The notes under the pieces are model-generated. The model ran no database searches and was not told the DNA's origin. It was given only the letters and a program-made list of their open reading frames with translations. From contig JAURPH010000012.1 of assembly GCA_030835345.1 (NCBI GenBank), forward strand, positions 623 to 64,622: 64,000 bases of DNA, in the 5' to 3' direction. The stretch comes from Thermodesulfobacteriota bacterium (GTDB lineage: Bacteria > Desulfobacterota_D > UBA1144). The translations under genes and the position numbers were made by a program. Shown here piece after piece: positions 4,824 through 62,323 of the stretch (positions are counted from its first letter, which is position 1; each line of letters begins with the position of its first letter).

Positions 4824-6344
4824 ATGAATATACTTTTAATTTTATTATTACCAATAATTTCAATAATTAGTATTTCTTTACTTAGGAAAAATATATTTTT
4901 AGTTAAATATTTACCAATTTCAATCAATGTTTTTTCTTTATTGCTAGTGTTGGGATTTATAATGAATGAACAATTATTAATCAATAATTCATTTGACAGC
5001 CTAAACATTAATCTATACACACTAATTGAAGCATTCGATATTAATATGAGCTTTGAAATTACAAGGATGTCAATTTTGCTTTTAACTTTAGCACATTTAA
5101 CAATACTTACTGCCTTCTTTTCGACTATTAAAATATCCGAACGACTACTGGAGCTTAATATTTTAATTTCTTTAATATCAATTGGTATATATGGATTAAT
5201 TATCTCAAATAATTTATTTGTATTTTTCCTATTCTATGAAATTGCAGCAATCCCAATTTTCCTAATGATATCTAATTGGGGATATAATTTAAAAAGGGAA
5301 ATATCTGGCCCATTTAAAAAAATCTTAAATTCTTTGGAAGTTGGAAGTAAAAAATATGCATCATATAAAATTACAATATATTTATTCATTGCATCAATTT
5401 TAATTTTTTTTGGATTAGCAATGATTGCAGTAAATATTGGATCATTTGAGATTTCAACTATCTCAAAGAACTTGGATAATCCTATACTAATGTCACCAAT
5501 AGTTTTCTTAATGCTAATTATGGGCTTTGGGTGTCATTCAGCATTATGGCCTTTTCATACTTGGGCTCCAGATGGTCATGGTTCTGCCCCTACAGCCGGT
5601 TCTATAATATTTGCCGGAGTTTTAATGAAAATTGGTTTAATAGGATTTATAAAAATTATAATACCACTAATGCCTAATATGGTTGCAGAATATAGGGAAC
5701 TAATAATAATCTTAGCATCCATAAATGTGTTATATGGTGCTCTTACCGCCATGAGACAAGATGATTTAAAATATATGGCAGCTTATGCATCACTTTCACA
5801 TATAGGCTATATATTTATAGCACTTATGACATCAAATTCCACAGGTATAAATGGTGGATTAATTCAAATTGTTTCACATGGATTAATAATTTGCCTACTG
5901 TTCTTCTGTGTTGGGTCTATTCACAAACTTAAAGGAACAAGATCAATAAAAGAATTAAACTCAATGTTAGATAACTCACCCATCCTTAGTTATTTCTTTA
6001 TATTTACTGCATTTGCAAGTATAGGTTTCCCTCTAACTAGTGGATTTATAGCCGAATTTTTAATAATAAATGGTATTCATGAATTCTCTTATAACTCTGC
6101 ATATATGCTGTTACTACTTTTTGTTCCTATCACTGGGATTTTCTTTACTACGATATACATGTTTAGGGCAGTGAAAAATTGCTGCTTAAGATTCAATGAA
6201 AATGCAAAATCAACAACTGACTTTTCTAGACATGAAGTTGTGATTTGTTTAGTACTAGTAACAGTGATAGTAACAATTGGGATCTTCCCTAGTTTAATAC
6301 AAGATCTTTTAGGAAATTCATATGAGAGGTTGGTTTTAAGATAA
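4824..6344 (+). CDS. nuoM: NADH-quinone oxidoreductase subunit M
   Basis: HSALWPFHTWAPDGHGSAPTAGSIIFAGVLMKIG motif of NuoM/ND4. Operon position. Confidence 0.9.
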   Translation: MNILLILLLPIISIISISLLRKNIFLVKYLPISINVFSLLLVLGFIMNEQLLINNSFDSLNINLYTLIEAFDINMSFEITRMSILLLTLAHLTILTAFFSTIKISERLLELNILISLISIGIYGLIISNNLFVFFLFYEIAAIPIFLMISNWGYNLKREISGPFKKILNSLEVGSKKYASYKITIYLFIASILIFFGLAMIAVNIGSFEISTISKNLDNPILMSPIVFLMLIMGFGCHSALWPFHTWAPDGHGSAPTAGSIIFAGVLMKIGLIGFIKIIIPLMPNMVAEYRELIIILASINVLYGALTAMRQDDLKYMAAYASLSHIGYIFIALMTSNSTGINGGLIQIVSHGLIICLLFFCVGSIHKLKGTRSIKELNSMLDNSPILSYFFIFTAFASIGFPLTSGFIAEFLIINGIHEFSYNSAYMLLLLFVPITGIFFTTIYMFRAVKNCCLRFNENAKSTTDFSRHEVVICLVLVTVIVTIGIFPSLIQDLLGNSYERLVLR

Positions 6345-7744
6345 TGGAAAATATCATATCAAATCTTTTGCCCGAAATAGTAGTTCTACTAACTTCGGTT
6401 TCACTTCTAGTAAATTCCATAATAGATCAGAACGATAAAAGAATAACAAATAAAATCATTCTTACTTTAGGGCTTATAATTGCTGCATTTACCTGTTATC
6501 AACAATCATCATATGAACTTTTTCTAAGTGGTATTTTAGAAAACACGGAATTTACCAAATCAATAAAATTTATAATGATTTCAATATCGCTGTTCGCTTT
6601 GATTTTTGTATCAAATTCAAAATCTGAGGAATTAAAAAATTATTTTAATGAATATTGCTTCCTGCTTACTCTATCTTTAGTTGGCTCAATGCTTTTAATT
6701 TCTGCCAGAGAATTTTTCATGTTAATAATTGCATTTGAGACACTTAGCATACCAATCTATCTGATTACAGCCATGGGTCCAAACCCTAAATTGTCTGTAG
6801 AAGCCTCTACAAAATTATTCTTTTTTGGAACTTTTACAACGGTAATTTTAATTTTTTCAGCAGTATTATATTTTGCTTCAACTGGTTCAACATTCTTTTC
6901 TGTTGAATTTTGGCAAATTAAAGACTTAATACCTTTATTATCAATCTTCTTCATGTTGATAGCTGTTAGTTTTAAAGCAGGGCTCTTCCCTTTTCATTTT
7001 TGGATATCTGACACTTATCAAGCTGCTCCTCTGAATTTACTACCATACCTAAGTGTCATCCCAAAAATTAGCATTATTTCCTTCTTCATAATATTTATGC
7101 AAGATTATTCAAGTAGTGCTATAAATAAAGTAATTATAGATAATATTGTAATCACCTTCTCATGTATATCGATAATATTTGGATCGATATTAACTATGAA
7201 ACAAGAAAAATTACTTAGACTACTTGCATATTCAGGGATTCCTCACGCAGGCATGCTTTTGCTTTTCTCAGTTTTAAATTTTGGGATCGCAAAAGATTTT
7301 ATAATAATATACTTAACATTCTATTCAGTAGCTAACATATGTCTATATATATCATTAAATTCATTAAAAATATCATCTGAAGAAATAACACTAAACAGTT
7401 TAAAAGGAATCTTTAAAGATAATCCATTTGTCGCAATTTCTCTTGCTATCTCATTACTTTCATTAGCTGGTGCACCTTTAACTGCTGGCTTTTGGGGGAA
7501 ATTTAATGTAGTAATTTTAAGTTACTCATCTTACGGAATGTTAATACCAATAGTTATACTCCTTGGGGCTCTAATGTCCTTCTATTATTATATTAAAATT
7601 ATAAGAAATCTTTTTTCTTCCAAACAAATTAATACATTTCAAGGAATTGAAATATCAAATATAAACTATTTGATATTAACTATTTGCATCTTTATGACAA
7701 TACTTCTCGGAATTAACCCTGGATTAATAATAAAAATCCTATAA
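6344..7744 (+). CDS. nuoN: NADH-quinone oxidoreductase subunit N
   Basis: KAGLFPFHFWISDTYQAAPLNLLPYLSVIPKIS motif of NuoN/ND2. Last gene of the operon. Confidence 0.9.
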   Translation: MENIISNLLPEIVVLLTSVSLLVNSIIDQNDKRITNKIILTLGLIIAAFTCYQQSSYELFLSGILENTEFTKSIKFIMISISLFALIFVSNSKSEELKNYFNEYCFLLTLSLVGSMLLISAREFFMLIIAFETLSIPIYLITAMGPNPKLSVEASTKLFFFGTFTTVILIFSAVLYFASTGSTFFSVEFWQIKDLIPLLSIFFMLIAVSFKAGLFPFHFWISDTYQAAPLNLLPYLSVIPKISIISFFIIFMQDYSSSAINKVIIDNIVITFSCISIIFGSILTMKQEKLLRLLAYSGIPHAGMLLLFSVLNFGIAKDFIIIYLTFYSVANICLYISLNSLKISSEEITLNSLKGIFKDNPFVAISLAISLLSLAGAPLTAGFWGKFNVVILSYSSYGMLIPIVILLGALMSFYYYIKIIRNLFSSKQINTFQGIEISNINYLILTICIFMTILLGINPGLIIKIL

Positions 7745-13885: not shown

Positions 13886-13953
13886 CTTTCATACAAAGGT
13901 ATGTCAGAAAAAATCTTTATTTAAGTGATAACATTGGGTTCTAATATTTCTTG

Positions 13954-14297
13954 TGGAGGCGCTGGGAATCGAACCCAGGTCCGAAAATTAGCTAAATAAG
14001 AGCTTCTACACGCTTATTTTAGCTTTATTTTTTAAAAACATTCCCAAAGCTGAAAAAAAGAGAATATCTCGATCTTCTTAAATACTAGAAAAGCTCAAGA
14101 AGCCAACTTCTTTTCTAGTCTCATATTGTTTGCATTAACTAAATCCTATGAGAAAAAAATAGCTAATGTTGCTGCACTATCTAGGCAGCAAGTTGATTGA
14201 TTGGTTCGGCACTTATAGTGCTTTTGCCAGTTTAACGAGTTAGCTCTCGACATGCTACTCTTAAATGCTTAATCATCGTCGAAACCAAATCGCCCCC
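13954..14297 (-). ncRNA. ssrA: tmRNA (one-piece SsrA)
   Basis: 5' GGGGGCGATTTGGTTTCGACG pairs with 3' ...GGTTCGATTCCCAGCGCCTCCA, including the G3:U pair. The tag ORF GCC GAA CCA ATC AAT CAA CTT GCT GCC TAG (14181-14210) encodes AEPINQLAA. CCA is not encoded. smpB lies directly upstream. Confidence 0.93.
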
Positions 14298-30597: not shown

Positions 30598-30669
30598 TGC
30601 CCTCGCCGGGAATCGAACCCAGAACTAGGGATTAGGAATCCCTTGTTATATCCGTTTAACTACGAGGAC
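30598..30669 (-). tRNA. tRNA-Arg (anticodon CCU)
   Basis: 72-nt cloverleaf folded by hand. Acceptor GTCCTCG/CGAGGGC, anticodon arm AGGGA-TTCCTAA-TCCCT, T-loop TTCGATT. CCA not encoded. Confidence 0.88.
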
Positions 30670-34552: not shown

Positions 34553-35398
34553 ATGAAAAAATTTACAACAACAGATAATTATATAACAACCCCTGACCTT
34601 GAACTTGCTGTTAATGCTTCTATTTCCCTAGAAAAACCTCTTCTAGTAAAAGGTGAGCCAGGTACTGGAAAAACTCTTCTGGCCGAAGAGATTGCTAAAT
34701 GTTTAGACATGAAAATTATCAAATGGCATATAAAGTCAACCACTAAAGCTCAACAAGGTCTTTATGAGTATGATGCAATCACACGACTTCGAGATTCTCA
34801 GCTTGGTGATTCCAGAGTTAAAGATATATCGAATTATATTGTAAAAGGAAAATTATGGGAAGCATTTGCTTCTAATGAGAAAGTTGTACTTTTGATCGAT
34901 GAAATTGATAAAGCAGACATTGAATTTCCTAATGATCTGTTACAAGAATTAGATAAAATGGAGTTTTATGTATACGAAACAAAAGAAAATATTATTGCTA
35001 AAAAAAGACCAATTGTAATAATAACTAGCAATAATGAAAAAGAACTACCAGATGCTTTTCTTAGGAGATGTATCTTCCATTATATAAATTTTCCTGATAA
35101 AAAAACCATGCAAGATATCGTCAATGTTCATTTCCCTAAAATTAAGAAGAAGCTTCTAAATGAAGCATTGGAGATATTTTTTGATTTACGTGAAGTCCCT
35201 AATATTAAAAAATACCCTTCAACCTCAGAATTAATTGATTGGATAAAGCTTCTCCTTTCTGATGATATACCAAGGGATATACTTTTAGAGAGGGATGAAG
35301 CTAAAGCAATTCCACCATTACATGGAGCATTGTTAAAAAATGAACAAGATGTTCATATGTTGGAAAGATTAAGATTTATGATTCGTCGAGGTAGCTAG
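34553..35398 (+). CDS. MoxR-family AAA+ ATPase
   Basis: Walker A GEPGTGKT, Walker B LLIDEIDK, sensor ITSNNEKELPDAFLRR. Confidence 0.85.
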   Translation: MKKFTTTDNYITTPDLELAVNASISLEKPLLVKGEPGTGKTLLAEEIAKCLDMKIIKWHIKSTTKAQQGLYEYDAITRLRDSQLGDSRVKDISNYIVKGKLWEAFASNEKVVLLIDEIDKADIEFPNDLLQELDKMEFYVYETKENIIAKKRPIVIITSNNEKELPDAFLRRCIFHYINFPDKKTMQDIVNVHFPKIKKKLLNEALEIFFDLREVPNIKKYPSTSELIDWIKLLLSDDIPRDILLERDEAKAIPPLHGALLKNEQDVHMLERLRFMIRRGS

Positions 35399-36573
35399 TG
35401 TTAATTGATTTTTTTATGACAATAAAAAAATCTGGAGTTAATGTTTCCCTCAAAGAACTTCTAGATTTGATTAATGCATTAAGTAAAAACTTAATTAAGC
35501 CAACTAGTCAGGGCTTTTATTACCTGAGCAGATCAATAATGGTTAAGGATGAGAAATATTATGATAAGTTTGATCAAGCTTATGGAATTTTTTTCGAGGG
35601 TATTGAGGACTTAGATATTGATTTCCTTAAGAATGAAATTCCTGAGGAATGGCTTAGAAAACAATTCGAAAAAACATTAACAGATGAGGAAAGAAAAAAT
35701 ATAAAATCTCTTGAAGACTTAGAAGAATTAATGAAAAAATTCCTTGAAACCTATGATAAACAGAGAGAAAGGCATCAAGGTGGTAATAAATGGATTGGAA
35801 CTGGTGGAACATCTCCTTTTGGTGCATATGGAAACAACCCCTTTGGCATAAGAATTGGACAAGATGGTAATAGGAACTTTTCTGCCGCTAAGGTGTGGGA
35901 CGAAAGAAGATTTAGAAATCTAGACGATAATGTAGAAATAGGAACAAGAAATATTAAAGTTGCATTAAAAAAATTAAGAAAATTTGCAAGAGTTTCTGGA
36001 AAAGATGAACTTGATGTTGATGAAACTATCAAGAAGACTGCAGATAATGGGGGATTCATTGATATTAGAACTCGTGCAGAAAAAATGAATCAAATAAAAG
36101 TGCTAATTTTTTTTGATGTCGGTGGCTCTATGGATCCTTACATTCAAATTTGTGAAGAACTATTCTCAGCAGCAAGATATGAATTCAAAAATCTTGAATT
36201 CTTTTACTTTCATAACTTTATCTATGAAGGTGTATGGAAGGACAACCAAAGGAGAAACGAAATAATTGATACTCAAGAAATTATAAATAAATATGGTGCT
36301 GACTATAAAGTTATTTTTGTAGGTGATGCTTCAATGGGGATTTACGAAGTTACTCATATTAATGGTTCAGTAGAACATTATAATGAGAAGCCAGGTGAAT
36401 ATTATCTTAAATCCTTACAGAACCATTTTAATAAAATTGTTTGGCTAAATCCGTCTGATATTGAAGATTGGGATTATTCACAGTCAATTGATTACATAAG
36501 ATATTTAATTGAAAATAAAATGTATCCCCTAACAATTGAGGGGATTAATAAAGCAGTAAAATTCTTAACTTAA
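35398..36573 (+). CDS. VWA-domain protein, CoxE-like partner of the MoxR ATPase
   Basis: Its start overlaps the MoxR stop. C-terminal VWA-like core FFDVGGSM (MIDAS-like D-x-S-x-S degenerate). Confidence 0.7.
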   Translation: MLIDFFMTIKKSGVNVSLKELLDLINALSKNLIKPTSQGFYYLSRSIMVKDEKYYDKFDQAYGIFFEGIEDLDIDFLKNEIPEEWLRKQFEKTLTDEERKNIKSLEDLEELMKKFLETYDKQRERHQGGNKWIGTGGTSPFGAYGNNPFGIRIGQDGNRNFSAAKVWDERRFRNLDDNVEIGTRNIKVALKKLRKFARVSGKDELDVDETIKKTADNGGFIDIRTRAEKMNQIKVLIFFDVGGSMDPYIQICEELFSAARYEFKNLEFFYFHNFIYEGVWKDNQRRNEIIDTQEIINKYGADYKVIFVGDASMGIYEVTHINGSVEHYNEKPGEYYLKSLQNHFNKIVWLNPSDIEDWDYSQSIDYIRYLIENKMYPLTIEGINKAVKFLT

Positions 36574-36574
36574 T

Positions 36575-36952
36575 TTATATTTTTATTAATTTTAAAAATA
36601 AATATACTGAAAAAAATCCTAATAAAATATTAAAAGACAAATAGCCAAATGCTCTACTGAAATCCTTATCATTTATCATCTTTGCAAACTCAAAACTAAA
36701 TGTTGAAAAAGTTGTTAAAGAGCCTAGATACCCAATTATAAAAAAATCTCTCAAATTAGTTTTAAAATCAATAAATGAGGAGGCATAATAAAAAAATCCC
36801 AGCAATAAAGAACCAATTACATTAACTAACAATGTGGAGAGGTAAGGTTTATCTGGAGTTTGTATAGAAACAATGTTATTTGCAACAAATCTTGTTACAG
36901 CTCCCAAAGAACCTCCTACAGCCACTAATAAATAAGTTATTAACATAATCAA
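36575..36952 (-). CDS. crcB: Fluoride ion channel CrcB/Fluc
   Basis: 125 aa, 4 TM, GGSLGAVTRF and GYLGSLTTFSTFS motifs. Confidence 0.88.
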   Translation of the reverse strand: MIMLITYLLVAVGGSLGAVTRFVANNIVSIQTPDKPYLSTLLVNVIGSLLLGFFYYASSFIDFKTNLRDFFIIGYLGSLTTFSTFSFEFAKMINDKDFSRAFGYLSFNILLGFFSVYLFLKLIKI

Positions 36953-36983: not shown

Positions 36984-37517
36984 TCAATCAACCATGGTGA
37001 CGGATATTTTTTTGTCTTGAGAGCTAGCATCTGCAAGAAACTCTGGGTGTTCTTGGGCGAATTTGTTTTTTATAATTTCCTGAGAAGTTTTAAGGAAAAA
37101 CTTTATTTTATGTTTACTTTCAAGATCTAAATTTCCAGAAAACAACATAAGTCTCCAATAAAGCAATGCTCTACAGATTAATTCAGCTTCAACAATTAAT
37201 TCTTCATCATTTTTATAATCCCAATCTTCTAGAGCATAGAACAAATATCTGGGCTCTTTGGTTTGTAAAAAATCAATTAATGCTGGAACTTTTTTTGTGA
37301 ATGGGTTTGCAAGGTTTGGGGGATGCAAATCTTTATATGTTCCCCATTTATATTCTTTTCTCCCTTTTAAATCTGTATTAGGCTGAATCCTCCATCCTAA
37401 GTTAAATGAACTTTTTTTATAATTTGCATCAGTTCCATATCTTTTAGCATGATCCTCTTTATGATATTTTTCAAGCTGATCTTTCATCGATGCATTATAT
37501 AAACGAAAAACTGTCAT
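36984..37517 (-). CDS. Hypothetical protein, LEDWD/YWR paralog family member 1 (177 aa)
   Basis: Shares YKWG..NP.T.KVP..DF..TKE.R..FY.LEDWD..EL.CRALL.WRL.L..GN.D with the adjacent ORF. Basic N-terminus, no TM or signal peptide. Confidence 0.7.
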   Translation of the reverse strand: MTVFRLYNASMKDQLEKYHKEDHAKRYGTDANYKKSSFNLGWRIQPNTDLKGRKEYKWGTYKDLHPPNLANPFTKKVPALIDFLQTKEPRYLFYALEDWDYKNDEELIVEAELICRALLYWRLMLFSGNLDLESKHKIKFFLKTSQEIIKNKFAQEHPEFLADASSQDKKISVTMVD

Positions 37518-38453
37518 TTAAATGCTAGTTACAACAATTTCTCTCGAGTCAAAGAAATTAGGATCCTTTTCTGAGTTAAATTTAAGCTCCTTATAAATTG
37601 AATAAATTAACTTCCAGTCTGCAATCAAATTAATTTTTGGTTCTTTCTTATGCTTTTTTAATTTATTATGATTCCAAGCCAAATACGAGGAAACGATTAA
37701 ATCTAAATTTTGAAAATTAAACCCTGTCTTTATAAAAAGATCACTAGGTATATTATCTTTATCAAAAATTGATTTAAAAATTTTTGTCCAATATTTTTCT
37801 TTAAGAGACAGGTTAGTTTCTTGAGAGATTTCTCTCTCATATGGCTTAAGCTTTAAAACTAAACTCTTAAAATTATCATTAAAAATAGATGGCATATTTG
37901 GATTGTAAGAAATAAAATTAGGTTTTTTATTTCGATTTTTATAAGAATTATCTAATTCAAAGTTGTAAAATTTAGCTAATCCATCCTTATAAGGCCAAAA
38001 TTTTAGTCTAGGCATTGAATCATTTATAATTTTACTAGAAGTAGAAATATAAGATTTTATAATTTTTCTCTCTTCCTCATCAACATTCCCTGTAATTAAT
38101 CTCAATCTCCAATGCAATAATGCTCTACAAGCTAATTCTTCTTCAATTGGGAAACTTGAAATATCATTAAAATCCCAATCCTCTAACATGTAAAAAAAGA
38201 AACGGGTCTCTTTGGTTTCTACAAAGTCAACAAATGATGGGACCTTACATGTTAAGGGGTTAACAACATTTGATGGAAATAAATTTTTATTTAATCCCCA
38301 CTTATATCTTTTTCTATCTTTGGTCTCAGTACGTGGTTGAAAAAAAAGTCTTTGCTGTGCATATTCACCTCTTTTCCTTTTTATTCTTTTAGCATTTTTA
38401 TCTAATTCTTTTTTTTGCTCTTGTGAAGCAATCTTGATGCCCATTATTGTCAT
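37518..38453 (-). CDS. Hypothetical protein, LEDWD/YWR paralog family member 2 (311 aa, extra C-terminal ~170 aa)
   Basis: About half of ~77 aligned residues are identical to member 1 by eye. Its stop directly abuts the member-1 start. Confidence 0.7.
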   Translation of the reverse strand: MTIMGIKIASQEQKKELDKNAKRIKRKRGEYAQQRLFFQPRTETKDRKRYKWGLNKNLFPSNVVNPLTCKVPSFVDFVETKETRFFFYMLEDWDFNDISSFPIEEELACRALLHWRLRLITGNVDEEERKIIKSYISTSSKIINDSMPRLKFWPYKDGLAKFYNFELDNSYKNRNKKPNFISYNPNMPSIFNDNFKSLVLKLKPYEREISQETNLSLKEKYWTKIFKSIFDKDNIPSDLFIKTGFNFQNLDLIVSSYLAWNHNKLKKHKKEPKINLIADWKLIYSIYKELKFNSEKDPNFFDSREIVVTSI

Positions 38454-38487
38454 CTAATAAGTTTAACATCGTAAGTGAATAAATTAA

Positions 38488-38865
38488 TCAAGACTTTTTA
38501 AAAGATAGTGAAGCTGAATTAATGCAATATCTTAAACCAGTTGGCTCTGGTCCATCGGAAAAAACATGTCCTAAATGTGCACCACAATTTTTACATGAAA
38601 CTTCAACTCTTACCATCATAAGGGAAGAATCTTCTTTAAAATCAATTTTATCTTTATTTAAACAGTCGAAAAAACTTGGCCAGCCAGTTCCTGAATCAAA
38701 TTTAGAACCGGATTCAAATAGCTCAATATCACAACAAATACATTTATAGGTACCCTCTTCTTTACAATCGTTTAAAGAACCGGAAAAAGGAGCTTCTGTA
38801 CCATGCTCTTGAGTCACATGATACTGAAGATCGGTGAGTTTTCCTTTCAAATCTTTATTTTTCAT
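38488..38865 (-). CDS. msrB: Peptide-methionine (R)-S-oxide reductase
   Basis: Zinc CxxC pairs (CICCD, CKNCG), GTGWPSF and RYCINS catalytic Cys motif. Confidence 0.93.
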
Positions 38866-39232
38866 CGGAGATACCCAAGTGTTTTTTTAAATACAATATT
38901 ATATCTTTGGATTCATATAACCATCCAGATGTACTACTACTATCACCAATCCTTAAACATGGAACTTGCAATTTTCCACCACCGTTAATAAGTTCTTGTG
39001 CGAAAGCTTTATTTCTTCTTGCATCCTTAGTATTGATAGAAATATTATTTTTCTTCATAAATCTTCTAACTCTGACGCAAAAAGGACAAGCTCTAAACTC
39101 ATAGATTGTCATATCTTTAACTTTATCTTGAATAGCTTTAAGTTCAGAACTACTAATTTTTTTAGGTCGAGGTGAAGTTGCCCAATCCAGGAAAAGTATT
39201 ATTCTACCAAGTATGAATCTAATTATCTGCAT
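38855..39232 (-). CDS. Glutaredoxin-like thiol oxidoreductase with N-terminal hydrophobic anchor
   Basis: CPFC active site in a Grx-like fold ([16 protein letters not shown]...VPCLRI). The start at the [15 protein letters not shown] Met (39232) removes the overlap with the upstream ORF. 11-nt overlap with msrB. Confidence 0.75.
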
Positions 39233-39233
39233 G

Positions 39234-39653
39234 CTATGCCTCTTGTGAGCCTGGAGCTGATGATAATGCAATTCCGACATTGCTCAACAAGACTTTTGCA
39301 ACATTAGCATTTGAATCGTTATTAAGAATCAAGTTTCTCCAATAATTGATTACATCAGTAAAAATATTTTCAGTTAATGGGTTACAAATATCATATGCTA
39401 CTTCGGAGTTCCATGTTTCAAGTGCAAGAAAAAAATAACCTGGTTTTTTTTTATTGTAAAATTTTGCTAAGTATGGATTTTTTCTTGCAAATTCTTGCCA
39501 TTCTTTTATTTCCATAGTGCGAACATTCTGAGGAAACATATCATCCCGGTCAAAAAAATCATATTTTTTCATATATGTTTCAGCATCAGTTTCGTTTATC
39601 ATGGTTCTTCCTATTACAGGGGTAGGAGAACGATCTGTAGATTTTCGACTCAT
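39234..39653 (-). CDS. Hypothetical protein, LEDWD/YWR paralog family member 3 (139 aa)
   Basis: FPQNV...GYFFLALETWN...INYWRNLIL keeps the family skeleton. Its stop lies 1 nt from the grx-like start. Confidence 0.6.
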   Translation of the reverse strand: MSRKSTDRSPTPVIGRTMINETDAETYMKKYDFFDRDDMFPQNVRTMEIKEWQEFARKNPYLAKFYNKKKPGYFFLALETWNSEVAYDICNPLTENIFTDVINYWRNLILNNDSNANVAKVLLSNVGIALSSAPGSQEA

Positions 39654-39767
39654 AATATTTATACTGTATTATAACTAGATATATGATACAAGATACTATA
39701 TTTTACTACTTTGCAATTACATGCCTAGCAATGGTATTGATATTAATTTATTTAATAAAAAAATAAC

Positions 39768-40184
39768 ATGTGGAAATGTAAACATACTTGGAGAAAGTCA
39801 TCTATAAATACATTATGGTGCTTAATAGGTTGCTCCATTGGTGACTTAGGTGCAATATTTTATTTTCAGAATATTGATCACAGCCTTTCAGTTATGACTA
39901 TAATGCTAATTGCGATAATCTGTGGTCTAACTACAAGTATTTTTTTAGAGACAATAATTCTATTTAAAGATTTAGGACTAAAAAAATCTTTGAAGACAGC
40001 TTTAGGTATGAGCTTGATTAGTATGGTCGGTATGGAAATAGCAATGAATAGTGTTGACTTTATTTTAAATGGAGAGCCGATAATTAATTTAAGAACAATA
40101 ACACCAGTATTACTGGCAGGATTTATTGCACCATTACCTTATAATTATTGGAGATTAAAAAAATATGGGATTTCGTGTCACTAA
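39768..40184 (+). CDS. Small integral membrane protein (DUF4396-like)
   Basis: 4 TM segments. The WCLIGCSIGDLGA motif resembles the HCxxGCxxGE motif of DUF4396 from memory. Confidence 0.55.
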   Translation: MWKCKHTWRKSSINTLWCLIGCSIGDLGAIFYFQNIDHSLSVMTIMLIAIICGLTTSIFLETIILFKDLGLKKSLKTALGMSLISMVGMEIAMNSVDFILNGEPIINLRTITPVLLAGFIAPLPYNYWRLKKYGISCH

Positions 40185-40187
40185 CAA

Positions 40188-40778
40188 TTAAGCGCTTTTC
40201 ATTTCTCTATATTTTCTTTCTTCTTCAGTAAATGCACCATCTGCTACAGGAATTATTGAAGGTATAAGAGCACCACCAATTCTCAAAAAACACTGTTCTA
40301 AGTACTTTTGTGCATCGCTAGCAAAGAAAGAGTTTCTTTTAAAGGTTAAGAAAGAACGCCAGTAGTTAATAGTAGACCAAACAACTGTAGGCGGTGTAAC
40401 ATTATCAAGCAACTCATTATAAGTTCCAATATGAGCCATATTAAGAATAGTTAAATCAAGTATCTCATCGCCAACCATAGATTCTGGATCCCATGATTCT
40501 GCATCCTCTATAACATTTCCATGCATTAGAGTATAATCGTGCATTATTGCTTCAATAAGTTTATTAGGATCTTTTGTTTCCAAATATTCTTCCAAACAAT
40601 CATAGGCAACTAATTTAAAAGGATTATGGCTATGATAACCTTCACCCTTTTCACTTGTTAATTGAACATTACCTTTAATTTGAGGTCTGAATAACTTCTT
40701 TTTGAGAAGACCATCAGGAAATATAGACTCTATTATAGTTTCTTCAGCTTTTTTTTCTTTAAAATCAATACCTTGCAT
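40188..40778 (-). CDS. Hypothetical protein, distant LEDWD/YWR paralog family member 4 (196 aa)
   Basis: IFPDG..., VIEDAESWDPE and, 40 aa later, TINYWRSFL. Weaker similarity than members 1-3. Confidence 0.55.
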   Translation of the reverse strand: MQGIDFKEKKAEETIIESIFPDGLLKKKLFRPQIKGNVQLTSEKGEGYHSHNPFKLVAYDCLEEYLETKDPNKLIEAIMHDYTLMHGNVIEDAESWDPESMVGDEILDLTILNMAHIGTYNELLDNVTPPTVVWSTINYWRSFLTFKRNSFFASDAQKYLEQCFLRIGGALIPSIIPVADGAFTEEERKYREMKSA

Positions 40779-40917: not shown

Positions 40918-41181
40918 CTAATTTTTCCCTGCCCAAAAAAGCTTCATTCTTTGAATTAACTCTTTTCTTCCAGACTTATTTTTTAGGAGCTTTAAACATT
41001 CCTTAAAAATTTTAAAGTATTTTTTAAGCTTAATTCTTCCATCAGGGAAGCTATATAAATAAATTCCGTAAATTAAAAAGAAAGGTGCGAGTATGGGAAT
41101 ACCAAAAGGCATAGCTAGAATAAATAAAAAGACTCTATTTATTACTTTTTTGAATTTGTCATACATAACTTTAAAGTTCAA
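40918..41181 (-). CDS. Small membrane protein (87 aa)
   Basis: Two hydrophobic helices (VFLFILAMPFGIPILAPFFLIYGIYLY). 11-nt overlap with the upstream YgjP-like gene. Confidence 0.5.
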   Translation of the reverse strand: MNFKVMYDKFKKVINRVFLFILAMPFGIPILAPFFLIYGIYLYSFPDGRIKLKKYFKIFKECLKLLKNKSGRKELIQRMKLFWAGKN

Positions 41182-41926
41182 ATTCTAATTGATCATTTTT
41201 GTCTAACTTAATTTTATCATTGTTTTTAGAAAGACTACCAATATCATTCTTAAACATTTGAATTATGTGAGGATTGTTATTAATCCAATTTTCATACTTC
41301 ATATAGTCTGGCATCATAACTTCTACTTGAGTCCAATAATCTTTAGAATGATTAGGATGAATTATATGTGCTAATTCATGTACAACTAAATACGATATGA
41401 CTTCATGTGGAACTAATATTGCTCTCCAACTAAAACTCAAAATTCCCCTTCCAGAACATGACCCCCATTGAGAATGGGACTCTTTTATTAAAATCCTATC
41501 GTAAGAAATATTAAACAACTTCGAATATCTAATACACAATTCAGACAATTTCTCAGAAGCTCTTTCTTTATACCAATCTACAAAAACTTTATTAGCTAAT
41601 TTTAAATATGCATTAGAAAGATAAAAGGTACCATTTTCATATTTTAAAGGTATGGATTTATTGGTAACAATTTTAAGCGGTCTCTCTTTACCAAGGTATA
41701 GAAAGTTTTCACCTTCCTCGTATTTTTTATGAAGATCATTTAAATATTTAGTCTTGTTTATCTGTTGATTTCTCAATAGGTAAAACTTTTTCTCATATAG
41801 AAAATCTTCAACCAGTTCTGAAGAAGCATTTAAAGGAGCTCTAACTATTATATACCCCTCAATTGTTACTTCGGCAGATATAGTTTTTCTATCAGATCGT
41901 ATGATTTGATCAACCTTTAGACTCAT
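41171..41926 (-). CDS. YgjP-like zinc metallohydrolase (DUF45/M48-like)
   Basis: HELAHIIHPNHSKDYW motif near the C-terminus, preceded by QWGSCS, as in YgjP-family proteins. Confidence 0.75.
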   Translation of the reverse strand: MSLKVDQIIRSDRKTISAEVTIEGYIIVRAPLNASSELVEDFLYEKKFYLLRNQQINKTKYLNDLHKKYEEGENFLYLGKERPLKIVTNKSIPLKYENGTFYLSNAYLKLANKVFVDWYKERASEKLSELCIRYSKLFNISYDRILIKESHSQWGSCSGRGILSFSWRAILVPHEVISYLVVHELAHIIHPNHSKDYWTQVEVMMPDYMKYENWINNNPHIIQMFKNDIGSLSKNNDKIKLDKNDQLEFEL

Positions 41927-41979
41927 TTGAGGCTACTATAACACATAAAAAATTAAAAATTAACAATAATTTAAGATAT

Positions 41980-42291
41980 TTAAGATAATAATATAAAAAT
42001 AACAGTTAGTAATGAACCAAAAACTATTCCAACAATTGTAGCTATCAAGACTTCTTTTTGTCCTTTTGAAAGAGCTGGTGGTTTAGGAAAAGAATCTGTA
42101 TGTAAAAATTCAAATAATCCAATATGAGCAAATATAATTTTAGCTGGAATTGCAAAAGCAACGGATAAAATTATTATTTGACCATAGGTTGGTATGGTTT
42201 CATAAAAACTTGGCTCAGCAGCATTTGCATAACAAGTAGTTAAAAAAAATAAAGTGAGTGAATTTTTAAGCAAATTATTCATACAACACAT
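41980..42291 (-). CDS. Small exported/membrane protein
   Basis: Signal-like N-terminus (LTLFFLTTCYANA) followed by two TM helices. Confidence 0.5.
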   Translation of the reverse strand: MCCMNNLLKNSLTLFFLTTCYANAAEPSFYETIPTYGQIIILSVAFAIPAKIIFAHIGLFEFLHTDSFPKPPALSKGQKEVLIATIVGIVFGSLLTVIFILLS

Positions 42292-42325
42292 TGAATTATA
42301 ATAACAAATATAGGAAAATCAATAT

Positions 42326-43075
42326 ATGCCTAGTTGTTACTTACAAGTTTATGAGAATATAAAAAATACTGGAGATGATCAGAAATACTGGGAAGAATAT
42401 ACATCCTTTTATGAGCAGTTTTGGGGAGGCCCTACATCCCCTTATGGATTATGGTTTGGGAATGAATACTCTGCATTTGAAGAATCACTATGTGAACATA
42501 TGCAAATTCAAAAAAAGGACATAAAACAATGCTTATTTATCAAAGAGAATAATGAATATTACATATGTCCATCTGAAGAAAATTCAAAAAAAAAGTCATA
42601 TTCATATTTAGTTAACAATCTTGTTCCACTTCATTGGTTACTATTATTTACTGAAGAGCAAAAAAAAGTTTTCAAAACCCATTGGGGCTTTGGAGCAATT
42701 CATTATACCTCTACAATTAAAAATGGATTAGAAATGATAAAAGATGGTAATGATTTGAAGGTTTCAATAAATGAGATGAAAAATCCTGCTAAGGAAGCTT
42801 TTATAAAAATTTTTGATGAACTTTCAACAACAGAAAATTGGTTATCAGAATTCAAAACCGATAGTATCCTGATTCTTAATTATGGCGACTTATTAGCAAA
42901 TCTTCCTCAATCATCATTAGATAAAGAAGATTCGGTGAGCATATTATCTGATATTAAAATTTTAATTAGAGAAAAATCATTTTCTGACTCCGAAAAACTC
43001 TTAAACTTTTTAATAGAAAGGTGGTTAAAAATTGAATTTTCAAATAAAAAAAGTGAGAGTTTATCTGCTAACTAA
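42326..43075 (+). CDS. Hypothetical protein (249 aa)
   Basis: Long ORF with no recognisable motif, rich in Trp/Tyr near the N-terminus (YWEEYTSFYEQFWGG). Confidence 0.55.
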   Translation: MPSCYLQVYENIKNTGDDQKYWEEYTSFYEQFWGGPTSPYGLWFGNEYSAFEESLCEHMQIQKKDIKQCLFIKENNEYYICPSEENSKKKSYSYLVNNLVPLHWLLLFTEEQKKVFKTHWGFGAIHYTSTIKNGLEMIKDGNDLKVSINEMKNPAKEAFIKIFDELSTTENWLSEFKTDSILILNYGDLLANLPQSSLDKEDSVSILSDIKILIREKSFSDSEKLLNFLIERWLKIEFSNKKSESLSAN

Positions 43076-43753
43076 TTTTTGTATCCATTTTATAGGTATT
43101 AACTTTGGTGGAACAAGCAACTGATCCTCATTTTTAACAAAATCGTTTTTATATTCTAGGCTCCATTTATAACTAAGGAAATATTGTGTGATCTTTAAAG
43201 CTAATTTTTTTGAATTTTTTATTTTTGACCATTCATCTATTTTTTGCTCCATCGGAATAATTTTAGCCTTAGATGGATTAAATAATGTTCTTAGCGCAAA
43301 ATTCCTTTCTTCATCATTAGAGGGTTTCAGCTCTTTCTTCATATCTAACAACATGCGGTATATGTACTTATATGTTCCAACTACATGATCATTGCTAAAT
43401 GGTAATTTTCTTCTTTTTTTATTCGGATAATCATGGCCACTTAATCCCTCTGCAAATTTAATGATGTTGAGTTTATCTTCAGGGTATGGGTATTTTGCTT
43501 GTAATGACCACGCAATAATTTGATATCTTATAGTTGGATGATCCAATACGATAGGATGCTCTTTTATTGCAAGTGCTAAATGAATTGGATTCTTTGTCTT
43601 CTGAAAATCTCTAAAATATTTACAAAAAAAAAGCCATGATAAAATTCCTGTCTTTCCTTCATGAACCCTTTCTACAAAATTCTTAATTTCTTTAAAGAAT
43701 TCATCACTTAATATTTTTGAATCAATCCATGCATCATCTTTAATTTTTGCCAT
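43061..43753 (-). CDS. Hypothetical protein (230 aa)
   Basis: Long ORF with no recognisable motif. Convergent 15-nt overlap with the preceding ORF. Confidence 0.55.
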   Translation of the reverse strand: MAKIKDDAWIDSKILSDEFFKEIKNFVERVHEGKTGILSWLFFCKYFRDFQKTKNPIHLALAIKEHPIVLDHPTIRYQIIAWSLQAKYPYPEDKLNIIKFAEGLSGHDYPNKKRRKLPFSNDHVVGTYKYIYRMLLDMKKELKPSNDEERNFALRTLFNPSKAKIIPMEQKIDEWSKIKNSKKLALKITQYFLSYKWSLEYKNDFVKNEDQLLVPPKLIPIKWIQKLVSR

Positions 43754-43786
43754 AAATTAATACTAACATTCAAACTAAAATTTACA

Positions 43787-44521
43787 TTAAATAAGTTTCA
43801 TTCTCATTGAAATTGATTGATAGGTTGTTCGATATTTGTTTGCAAGAATATGCATTACAATTTTATCAATAGAATTAACTTCATGGAAATCTTTAGAAGC
43901 TATTACTCCTGAGTATGGTGCAGATGATTTCTGATAAATAATTGCAAAATTACAGAGTGCTTCATCAATCAAGATAGTATTTATATGCTCTGATAGCATG
44001 ATGGAGCTTTTCACTCCTTTTTTAGATGATTCTAAAAAAAACGGATAATATTTTCTTAAAAATTTTTCTATCTTATTTTTTAATGAATTGAATTCAGAAA
44101 GGAGCTTTTTGTCCGTTGGAGATCTGTCTGCATCAGGCCCGTAATAAACAAGCTTTGATAAAGAACCTGAAGAAGCAGCTGAGAATATAGCCTTTAACCA
44201 GTTTTTTGCTTCTGACCATCTATCAAAATTCTTTTTAAAAGACAACAATGTGTGAGCTGTTTCAAGTTCATTAAGAACAGACTGAAGAAGATTAATCACA
44301 ATTTTAACTAGAGACTCTCTTTCCAGTGTCAGTTCATCCTTCCAGCCTTTTACATAGCTTTCGTCATATAGAATTCTAGGCTCCAACTTAATCTGTTCAA
44401 CTATGCTTTCTAATAACTCAATTTCTTTTAAAATATCCGGATAATACTTTTCTTTAAAATACTCTACACTTAAGGAAATATCATCTATATTGCTTACTTT
44501 GGTTAACAGTTTATTCTTCAT
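43787..44521 (-). CDS. Hypothetical helical protein (244 aa), translationally coupled to fumC
   Basis: ATGA start/stop overlap with fumC. No recognisable motif. Confidence 0.6.
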   Translation of the reverse strand: MKNKLLTKVSNIDDISLSVEYFKEKYYPDILKEIELLESIVEQIKLEPRILYDESYVKGWKDELTLERESLVKIVINLLQSVLNELETAHTLLSFKKNFDRWSEAKNWLKAIFSAASSGSLSKLVYYGPDADRSPTDKKLLSEFNSLKNKIEKFLRKYYPFFLESSKKGVKSSIMLSEHINTILIDEALCNFAIIYQKSSAPYSGVIASKDFHEVNSIDKIVMHILANKYRTTYQSISMRMKLI

Positions 44522-62168: not shown

Positions 62169-62241
62169 GGGCCGTTAGCTCAGTTGGTAGAGCAACTCCC
62201 TTTTAAGGAGTGGGTCGCAGATTCGAGTTCTGCACGGCTCA
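62169..62241 (+). tRNA. tRNA-Lys (anticodon UUU)
   Basis: 73-nt cloverleaf. Acceptor GGGCCGT/ACGGCTC, anticodon arm ACTCC-CTTTTAA-GGAGT, T-loop TTCGAGT. Confidence 0.9.
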
Positions 62242-62248
62242 AGCGATG

Positions 62249-62323
62249 GTCCCCATCGTCTAGTCTGGCCTAGGACGCCGGGTTTTCATCCCGGTAACAG
62301 GGGTTCGAATCCCCTTGGGGACG
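62249..62323 (+). tRNA. tRNA-Glu (anticodon UUC)
   Basis: 75-nt cloverleaf. Acceptor GTCCCCA/TGGGGAC, anticodon arm CCGGG-TTTTCAT-CCCGG, T-loop TTCGAAT. Lies 7 nt after tRNA-Lys. Confidence 0.9.

Follow-up and report, generated by a model that had tools for sequence, protein, structure and literature searches.

The question raised by this locus is what a group of similar proteins with no recognisable domain may be doing among genes for a fluoride channel, a methionine sulfoxide reductase and a glutaredoxin. In a stretch of 64,000 nucleotides (nt) from a Thermodesulfobacteriota bacterium (positions 623 to 64,622 of contig JAURPH010000012.1, assembly GCA_030835345.1; this whole stretch is hereafter the window), four open reading frames (ORFs), here called m1 to m4, are interleaved with crcB, msrB and a glutaredoxin-like gene (grx). 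An earlier interpretation made from the letters alone (the sequence-only reading) took the four to be paralogs of unassignable domain, encoded on the minus strand; every ORF that it placed is present at those positions and on that strand (Table 1), and the exact abutment that it described for m1 and m2 is real, as the TAA stop codon of m2 immediately precedes the ATG of m1. Overall, the best explanation of the data, which we regard as reasonably probable, is that m1, m2 and m3 constitute a real, lineage-restricted family, that m4 is a probable further member, and that a putative operon accompanies them.

The family and its core

Pairwise comparison by BLASTP aligned m1 and m2 at 52% identity over 105 amino acids (aa; E=3e-39), a match at least as good as the half of ~77 residues that had been estimated by eye, and aligned m3 with m1 at E=1e-6 and with m2 at E=1e-4. 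Ortholog sets were also collected for each gene and aligned, giving alignments A1 (m1/m2), A2 (m3, with P0034-P0079 as the orthologs in the set) and A3 (m4), as well as A6 for a further paralog type, m5, described below. Comparison of A1 with A2 by hhalign yielded a probability of 94.5% (E=8e-8) over 91 columns. When hidden Markov models (HMMs) of the family were run over the 234 ORFs of the window, the m1/m2 model retrieved m3 at 6e-9 and the m3 model retrieved m1 at 4.5e-8, and no other real gene among these ORFs was retrieved. Together, these comparisons indicate that m1, m2 and m3 are homologous and have one core of ~90 residues in common, and the earlier placement of m3 in the family is borne out by pairwise, profile-profile and HMM searches alike. 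In A1, some m2-type proteins are composite: P0032 and P0033, when set beside P0015 and P0019, join an N-terminal part from one subtype to a body identical with that of a second, which suggests either recombination between paralogs or chimeric assemblies.

An AlphaFold2 (AF2) model of m2, built from a 34-sequence alignment with a mean local confidence (pLDDT) of 78 and a predicted TM-score (pTM) of 0.61, gives an outline of the protein. It begins with a disordered basic tail (residues 1-40). Residues 41-70 form an extended segment, placed with confidence, that contains the motifs YKWG, FP and NP-x-T; the core of five helices (72-150) comes next, then a small beta unit (152-183) and, last, a helical C-terminal domain (188-301). 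The unit common to the family is predicted to be a soluble core of ~90 residues in which the extended N-terminal segment packs on the five-helix bundle, marked by the motifs FP, [FY]L-x-TK-x-P, [LI]E-x-[WD] and [YW]W[RK]. In the full-length forms, namely m2, m5 and the m1 orthologs, the core is extended by the beta unit and the helical C-terminal domain, and no internal repeat was detected between this C-terminal domain and the core of m2 (E=0.31). By comparison, m3 and the m1 of the window are core-only, the latter through an in-frame loss of ~125 residues, comprising the beta unit and the C-terminal domain, that retained the last ~8 residues. The m1 orthologs of four sister species (L002-L005: P0003, P0004, P0006 and P0008) are 293-304 aa long, and the short form is found in the window and likewise in L001, the relative closest to it, and in a metagenomic cluster of 114 members. 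The full-length orthologs in L002-L005 are located at 8935-~9850; the m1 of the window is a natural short allele that is still constrained.

An exhaustive HMMER search with the core profile against 1.84 billion cluster representatives retrieved 21 proteins at E <=1e-3, one of which (P0110, a repeat protein of 1052 aa) was rejected as a false positive arising from its TTYYWRA repeats. The homologs all come from marine metagenomes, metagenome-assembled genomes (MAGs) or single-cell amplified genomes (SAGs). Their sources are labelled Candidatus Dadabacteria, which NCBI taxonomy treats as a class of Thermodesulfobacteriota, or else Thermodesulfobacteriota, "Deltaproteobacteria bacterium TMED58/TMED126" or "bacterium", with the exception of one single-cell assembly named Candidatus Hydrogenedens, and every source names the family proteins "hypothetical protein". 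The exact proteins of the window are also found on a contig of ~1.05 Mb, and the host bacteria have genomes of ~1-1.2 Mb with ~30% GC. The m1/m2/m3 family has been seen only in pelagic marine Candidatus Dadabacteria and in unclassified marine MAGs.

The weakest true matches of the same search (P0109 and P0111-P0113, of which P0111 is a distant match on a 525-bp contig) define m5, a fifth paralog type of 250 aa. The m5 family was matched by hhalign to the m3 family at 97.4% (E=1e-11) and to the m1/m2 family at 97.4% (E=2e-11), the latter over 186 columns that include the beta unit and the C-terminal domain, and the family HMMs also match at the m5 loci (L008-L013 and L027-L036, with the match at 6001-6750 or 5001-5750); by these profile matches, m5 bridges m3 to m1/m2. 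The sequence-only reading had expected LE-x-W-[DN] and [YH]WR to be conserved in all homologs, which does not hold, since m5 carries IE-x-D and [YWSH]W[RKT]; across 39 sequences of all five types, only a Glu (E91) and the Trp of the WR motif (W115) are invariant. MAGs that carry the m2/m3 locus were found to carry m5 as well (TMED58, NAT510, UBA1144 and ERR599130_bin.109, which holds both L002 and L035), on a separate contig and in a different, equally conserved context. The gene order there is a mutase, an HpcH-like protein, an acyl-CoA dehydrogenase, a cyclophilin, a 190-aa protein of no known function, m5, a membrane protein, an LPG-synthase-like protein, cysH, PiT and cysN, with no msrB, grx or crcB near m5 at these loci. 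Five paralog types thus co-occur in one MAG (L002 with L035, and L003 with L036), which is notable because limited or no gene duplication has been reported for pelagic Dadabacteria (PMC8115339). Both m5 (40-69% identity) and the adjoining 190-aa protein (25-55%) diverge much faster than the flanking genes, most of which are 70-97% identical.

The place of m4 is less certain. Against the other members, m4 gave pairwise BLASTP E-values of at least 0.04, and its profile gave hhalign E-values of 0.2, 3e-3, 2e-4 and 1e-3 with probabilities of 0.3-48% (0.3% against A1, 10% against A2 and, at best, 48% with E=2e-4 against the m5 family); the match to a merged profile (E=1e-3) extended over 71 collinear columns. 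Its scores of 30-34 lay above those of all 60 column-shuffled m4 alignments (maximum 22), and scores of 26-34 compared with a maximum of 20 for 13 real neighbouring gene families from the same genomes. Moreover, m4 has its motifs in the same order as m3 (FP, NPF, LxxYLETKxP, ExWD, INYWR and LxxGxAL). An AF2 model of m4 was too poor (pLDDT 50) for its fold to be compared with the core. The earlier suggestion that m4 is the fourth member is hence favoured by the shuffled and real-family controls and by the collinear motifs, and left weak by the pairwise and profile probabilities; on balance, m4 is probably a remote member with two insertions. Two proteins that seemed to join m4 to other sequences, P0092 (a MarR-type helix-turn-helix joined to a segment 99% identical to the C-terminal two thirds of m4) and P0096 (the m4 N-terminus fused to an unrelated low-complexity sequence), were set aside as probable assembly or gene-call chimeras, each on a contig of <=3.5 kb.

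No relative of m1-m4 was found among the models of Pfam, NCBIfam or PHROGs. A Pfam scan of 39 family members gave no recurrent match, the PADLOC defence models gave 0 matches to the family, and scans of viral contigs found no viral homologs. Searches of PDB sequences with four profiles returned chance matches only (E at least 0.1). With the m2 model, Foldseek found nothing at E <=0.001 among 350,542 PDB chains (best E=0.9) and a best E of 0.58 in BFVD, with query-normalised TM-scores <=0.20 in both. The domain, called unassignable in the sequence-only reading, has remained so in all of these libraries. In being known only from MAGs, SAGs and metagenomes, with no Pfam or NCBIfam model, the family resembles other lineage-specific families of hypothetical proteins; unlike most orphan genes, it comprises 4-5 paralog types in a streamlined genome of ~1 Mb, is under very strong purifying selection, and gives, for m2, a reasonably confident AF2 model for which neither solved nor viral structures yielded a match. 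We call the family new only because no relatives are detectable in the libraries searched; the word does not imply a demonstrated new mechanism.

Selection, gene order and transcription

Ratios of nonsynonymous to synonymous substitution (dN/dS) were measured against the closest genome, L001, at a dS of about 0.6-1.4. The values were 0.12 for m1, 0.044 for m2, 0.073 for m3 and 0.008 for m4, compared with 0.013-0.083 for neighbours that include msrB, moxR and ygjP. The ratio for m4 is the lowest in the block, its protein being 99.5% identical to the L001 ortholog at a dS of 1.36, and the exact m4 sequence is present on 223 contigs. These ratios and the gene order identify m1-m4 as bona fide genes that purifying selection constrains strongly and that occupy fixed syntenic positions. 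The order m4, DUF4396, m3-grx-msrB-m2 is identical in 14 species representatives, and the DUF4396 gene keeps its position in all loci compared. The m1-type copy is absent in some species (L007, L020, L021, L023 and L026), and crcB is absent from this site in L020 and L021. Because the whole block of 17 genes, from a thioesterase gene to o43787, is collinear in the same 14 representatives, this synteny says little about function.

The genes m3, grx, msrB, m2, m1 and crcB follow one another on the minus strand with gaps of <=34 nt. The crcB start lies 31 nt after m1, and msrB overlaps the grx stop by 11 nt. The annotated grx ORF would overlap m3 by 47 nt; its start is probably Met17 at 39232, because ortholog alignments begin at residues 9-17, and this start would fall 1 nt after the m3 stop. 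In this genome such gaps are the norm, since neighbouring genes on one strand are separated in the window by a median of 3 nt, and by no more than 34 nt in 79% of cases. Upstream of m3, the fixed positions of a promoter-like element (Table 1) are the same in 12 species, although the remainder of the 114-nt intergenic region between the divergent m3 and DUF4396 genes varies, and we infer that this element functions as a promoter. The m3 ATG lies 14 nt downstream of the element, with no Shine-Dalgarno sequence visible. A standard sigma-70 promoter requires a longer spacing than the 12 nt that separate the TTG[T/A]AT box from the TATAAT box; the element may rather be an operator, or an alternative -10 box whose mRNA would be nearly leaderless. 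Consensus scans for sigma-70 promoters and terminators gave hits at the chance level for this AT-rich DNA, and Rfam searches at permissive E-values and gathering scores found no fluoride riboswitch or other cis-regulatory RNA at the operon or crcB. The single transcription unit that had been proposed from the small gaps finds support in the tight coupling and in the conserved motif, with the reservation that the gaps are typical of the genome; the six genes m3 to crcB would then be co-transcribed from the predicted promoter upstream of m3. By comparison, m4 appears to be a separate transcription unit, because it is preceded by a conserved gap of ~140 nt and converges on the plus-strand DUF4396 gene.

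Pfam matches agree with the identities originally given to crcB, msrB and grx (Table 1). The MsrB of this locus reads DSGTGWPSF and is without the canonical resolving Cys; its closest solved structures are those of MsrB3, which have DSGSGWPSF at the aligned position. The glutaredoxin-like protein has a hydrophobic N-terminal segment, judged by eye only. According to a passage in PMC6162775 citing Tarrago 2009, MsrBs without a resolving Cys (one-Cys MsrBs) can be regenerated by glutaredoxins, and grx and msrB are probably a glutathione (GSH)/Grx-dependent one-Cys MsrB module.

Table 1. Positions in the window of m1-m4, their neighbouring genes and candidate regulatory elements
Feature	Positions	Strand	Description
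terminator-like hairpin then T-run	36524-36545	minus	3' of crcB; consensus scan only, chance-level count for region
crcB	36575-36952	minus	125 aa; fluoride channel; PF02537 at 9e-25; last gene of putative operon
m1	36984-37517	minus	177 aa; family paralog, tandem with m2
m2	37518-38453	minus	311 aa; full-length family member
msrB	38488-38865	minus	125 aa; SelR/MsrB, PF01641 at 1e-50
glutaredoxin-like gene, probable true extent	38855-39232	minus	start at Met17 of the 141-aa ORF
glutaredoxin-like ORF	38855-39280	minus	141 aa; PF00462 at 1e-10 and GST_N_3; CPFC motif
m3	39234-39653	minus	139 aa; core-only; first gene of putative operon
promoter-like element upstream of m3	39667-39693	minus	TCTTG[T/A]ATCAT + 8 variable nt + TTATAATA
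DUF4396 membrane protein gene	39768-40184	plus	PF14342 at 4e-30; divergent from m3, convergent with m4
m4	40188-40778	minus	196 aa; acidic; probable remote family member with insertions

The window as a whole has ~30% GC and is ~92% coding. Downstream of the putative operon, a MoxR-type AAA ATPase gene followed, with a 1-nt overlap, by a gene for a CoxE-like VWA protein (34553-36573, plus strand) forms a conserved pair that converges on crcB. On the other side of m4, further lineage-restricted proteins are encoded in 40918-44521, namely o40918 (87 aa), o41980 (103 aa), o42326 (249 aa), o43061 (230 aa) and o43787 (244 aa), none of which had a significant match in Pfam or NCBIfam. These surround a YgjP-like metallopeptidase, are syntenic in the species checked and are unrelated to the m family; the measurable proteins among the group have dN/dS values of 0.013-0.064, dS being saturated for o40918. 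Rfam identified a tmRNA gene and three tRNA genes, at 13951-14297 (minus), 30598-30669 (minus) and 62169-62323 (plus), which are ordinary chromosomal content.

Candidate functions of the family

Several points weigh against the explanation favoured here. Co-transcription is read from the layout of the genes and from the conserved motif, the membership of m4 is based on local matches of 35-71 columns at an hhalign probability of <=48%, and the family alignments are shallow, with an effective number of sequences (Neff) of about 2. In A1, moreover, invariant R, N, N, T, D, E, D and E residues cluster within residues 42-117, a pattern that also suits an enzyme or a specific ligand site.

With regard to function, the family proteins might be non-catalytic helical binding or adaptor modules, not enzymes or redox proteins, and the paralogs would differ mainly in their appended tails and domains. 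This guess is tentative, and is made because only a single acidic residue and a single Trp remain invariant across the subfamilies, neither Cys nor His shows conservation, and it is chiefly in the appended parts that the paralogs diverge. An enzymatic role for the m1/m2 subfamily is a serious rival to the binding-module guess. The m1/m2 proteins would then be enzymes, with m3, m4 and m5 as diverged or non-catalytic relatives, which we consider unlikely. Such a role would fit the very low dN/dS and the 22 columns of A1 that are invariant among sequences only 34-52% identical, many of them polar (including R47, N62, N65, T68, D76, E91, D92, E104 and R116); however, just E91 and W115 remain invariant once all subfamilies are included, no cofactor or metal motif is present, and the Foldseek comparison of the m2 model with PDB gave no fold match to any enzyme.

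The proposal in the sequence-only reading that the proteins are partners or clients of MsrB and Grx has been weakened. Stated more fully, the family would consist of dedicated partners, adaptors or clients of a Grx-dependent one-Cys MsrB; in surface water exposed to sunlight, these proteins would recruit oxidised substrates or protect them. The order m3-grx-msrB-m2, with genes that overlap or abut, is found in all 14 species representatives, a promoter-like motif is conserved upstream of m3, and an MsrB without a resolving Cys makes grx and msrB a plausible module in the light of the passage in PMC6162775 referred to above. Nevertheless, this linkage is weak evidence for a partnership, because the 17-gene block is collinear in the same genomes of a single lineage, so that linkage reflects shared ancestry, and because a median same-strand gap of 3 nt makes close spacing usual in the window. 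Furthermore, the m5 locus has genes for a peptidyl-prolyl isomerase and a membrane protein as well as cysH, without msrB or grx, no invariant Cys is found in the m1/m2 or m3 alignments, and the proteins, with 4-6 Met each, are not Met-rich. The plant MSRB1/GRX module is similar in that a one-Cys msrB here overlaps a gene for a CPFC glutaredoxin-like protein; this likeness concerns the neighbours, not the family proteins, none of which carries a redox motif. We know of no accessory protein resembling m1-m4 in any Msr system. A partnership of the whole family with MsrB and Grx thus seems unlikely as well, and although m2 and m3 may take part in oxidative repair, this is not a trait of the family in general.

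It is less likely still, and in our view very doubtful, that the proteins are associated with nucleic acids or ribosomes and tethered by basic, disordered N-terminal tails. Residues 1-50 of m2, predicted to be disordered in large part, contain 16 K/R and have an isoelectric point (pI) of 10.6, and the Lys/Arg-rich N-termini once ascribed to members 1-3 are indeed found in m1 and m2, and weakly in m3. However, a strongly basic tail is found only in m1 and m2; the cores have neutral to acidic pI values (4.9-6.9), and m3 and m4 as whole proteins are acidic. An abundance of Lys is, moreover, common among the proteins of this genome, which has 30% GC and a median pI of 8.5. Residues 96-120 of m3, the INYWR helix, gave a faint local match to PSRP-3/Ycf65 (PF04839, NF002740), a 30S ribosomal protein of plastids and cyanobacteria, whose Pfam consensus presumably has a YFF...D-x-W...INYWQ arrangement. 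This candidate was rejected as a chance match, at 12.4 bits against a cutoff of 135 and a Pfam E of 1.1 in 1 of the 39 members, and no ribosomal chain in PDB matched the family by sequence or fold. Finally, a diversifying array of small immunity-like or adaptor-like proteins, which the tandem m1 and m2 genes, the variable number of m1-type copies among species and the internal deletion in m1 might suggest, is effectively refuted by dN/dS values of 0.008-0.12 that are indistinguishable from those of housekeeping neighbours, by fixed positions with one-to-one syntenic orthologs in 14 species, by the lack of PADLOC, PHROGs or viral relatives, and by the absence of any toxin-like or mobile-element gene nearby.

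A bolder possibility, which we regard as improbable, is that these proteins form an unseen class of accessory subunits by which Grx-dependent one-Cys MsrB, and perhaps further stress systems close to the membrane, would be directed to particular substrates in Dadabacteria of the sunlit ocean. The family would then have a fold unlike solved structures, and would have arisen and expanded within a lineage that otherwise loses its paralogs. Pelagic Dadabacteria are uncultured heterotrophs of worldwide distribution in the ocean; their genomes, of ~1-1.2 Mb, are reported to contain almost no paralogs (PMC8115339). Since orphan families are common in candidate lineages and no mechanism emerges here, the immediate significance of the present family is moderate; it is nonetheless a well-defined target for structural genomics and for the mining of Tara-type metatranscriptomes. 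Taking into consideration that the family is confined to pelagic Dadabacteria, that related MAGs hold all five paralog types, and that all four measured copies are under strong purifying selection, with a tighter constraint on m4 than on any of the genes around it, it is likely that the family encodes something important and specific to this lineage.

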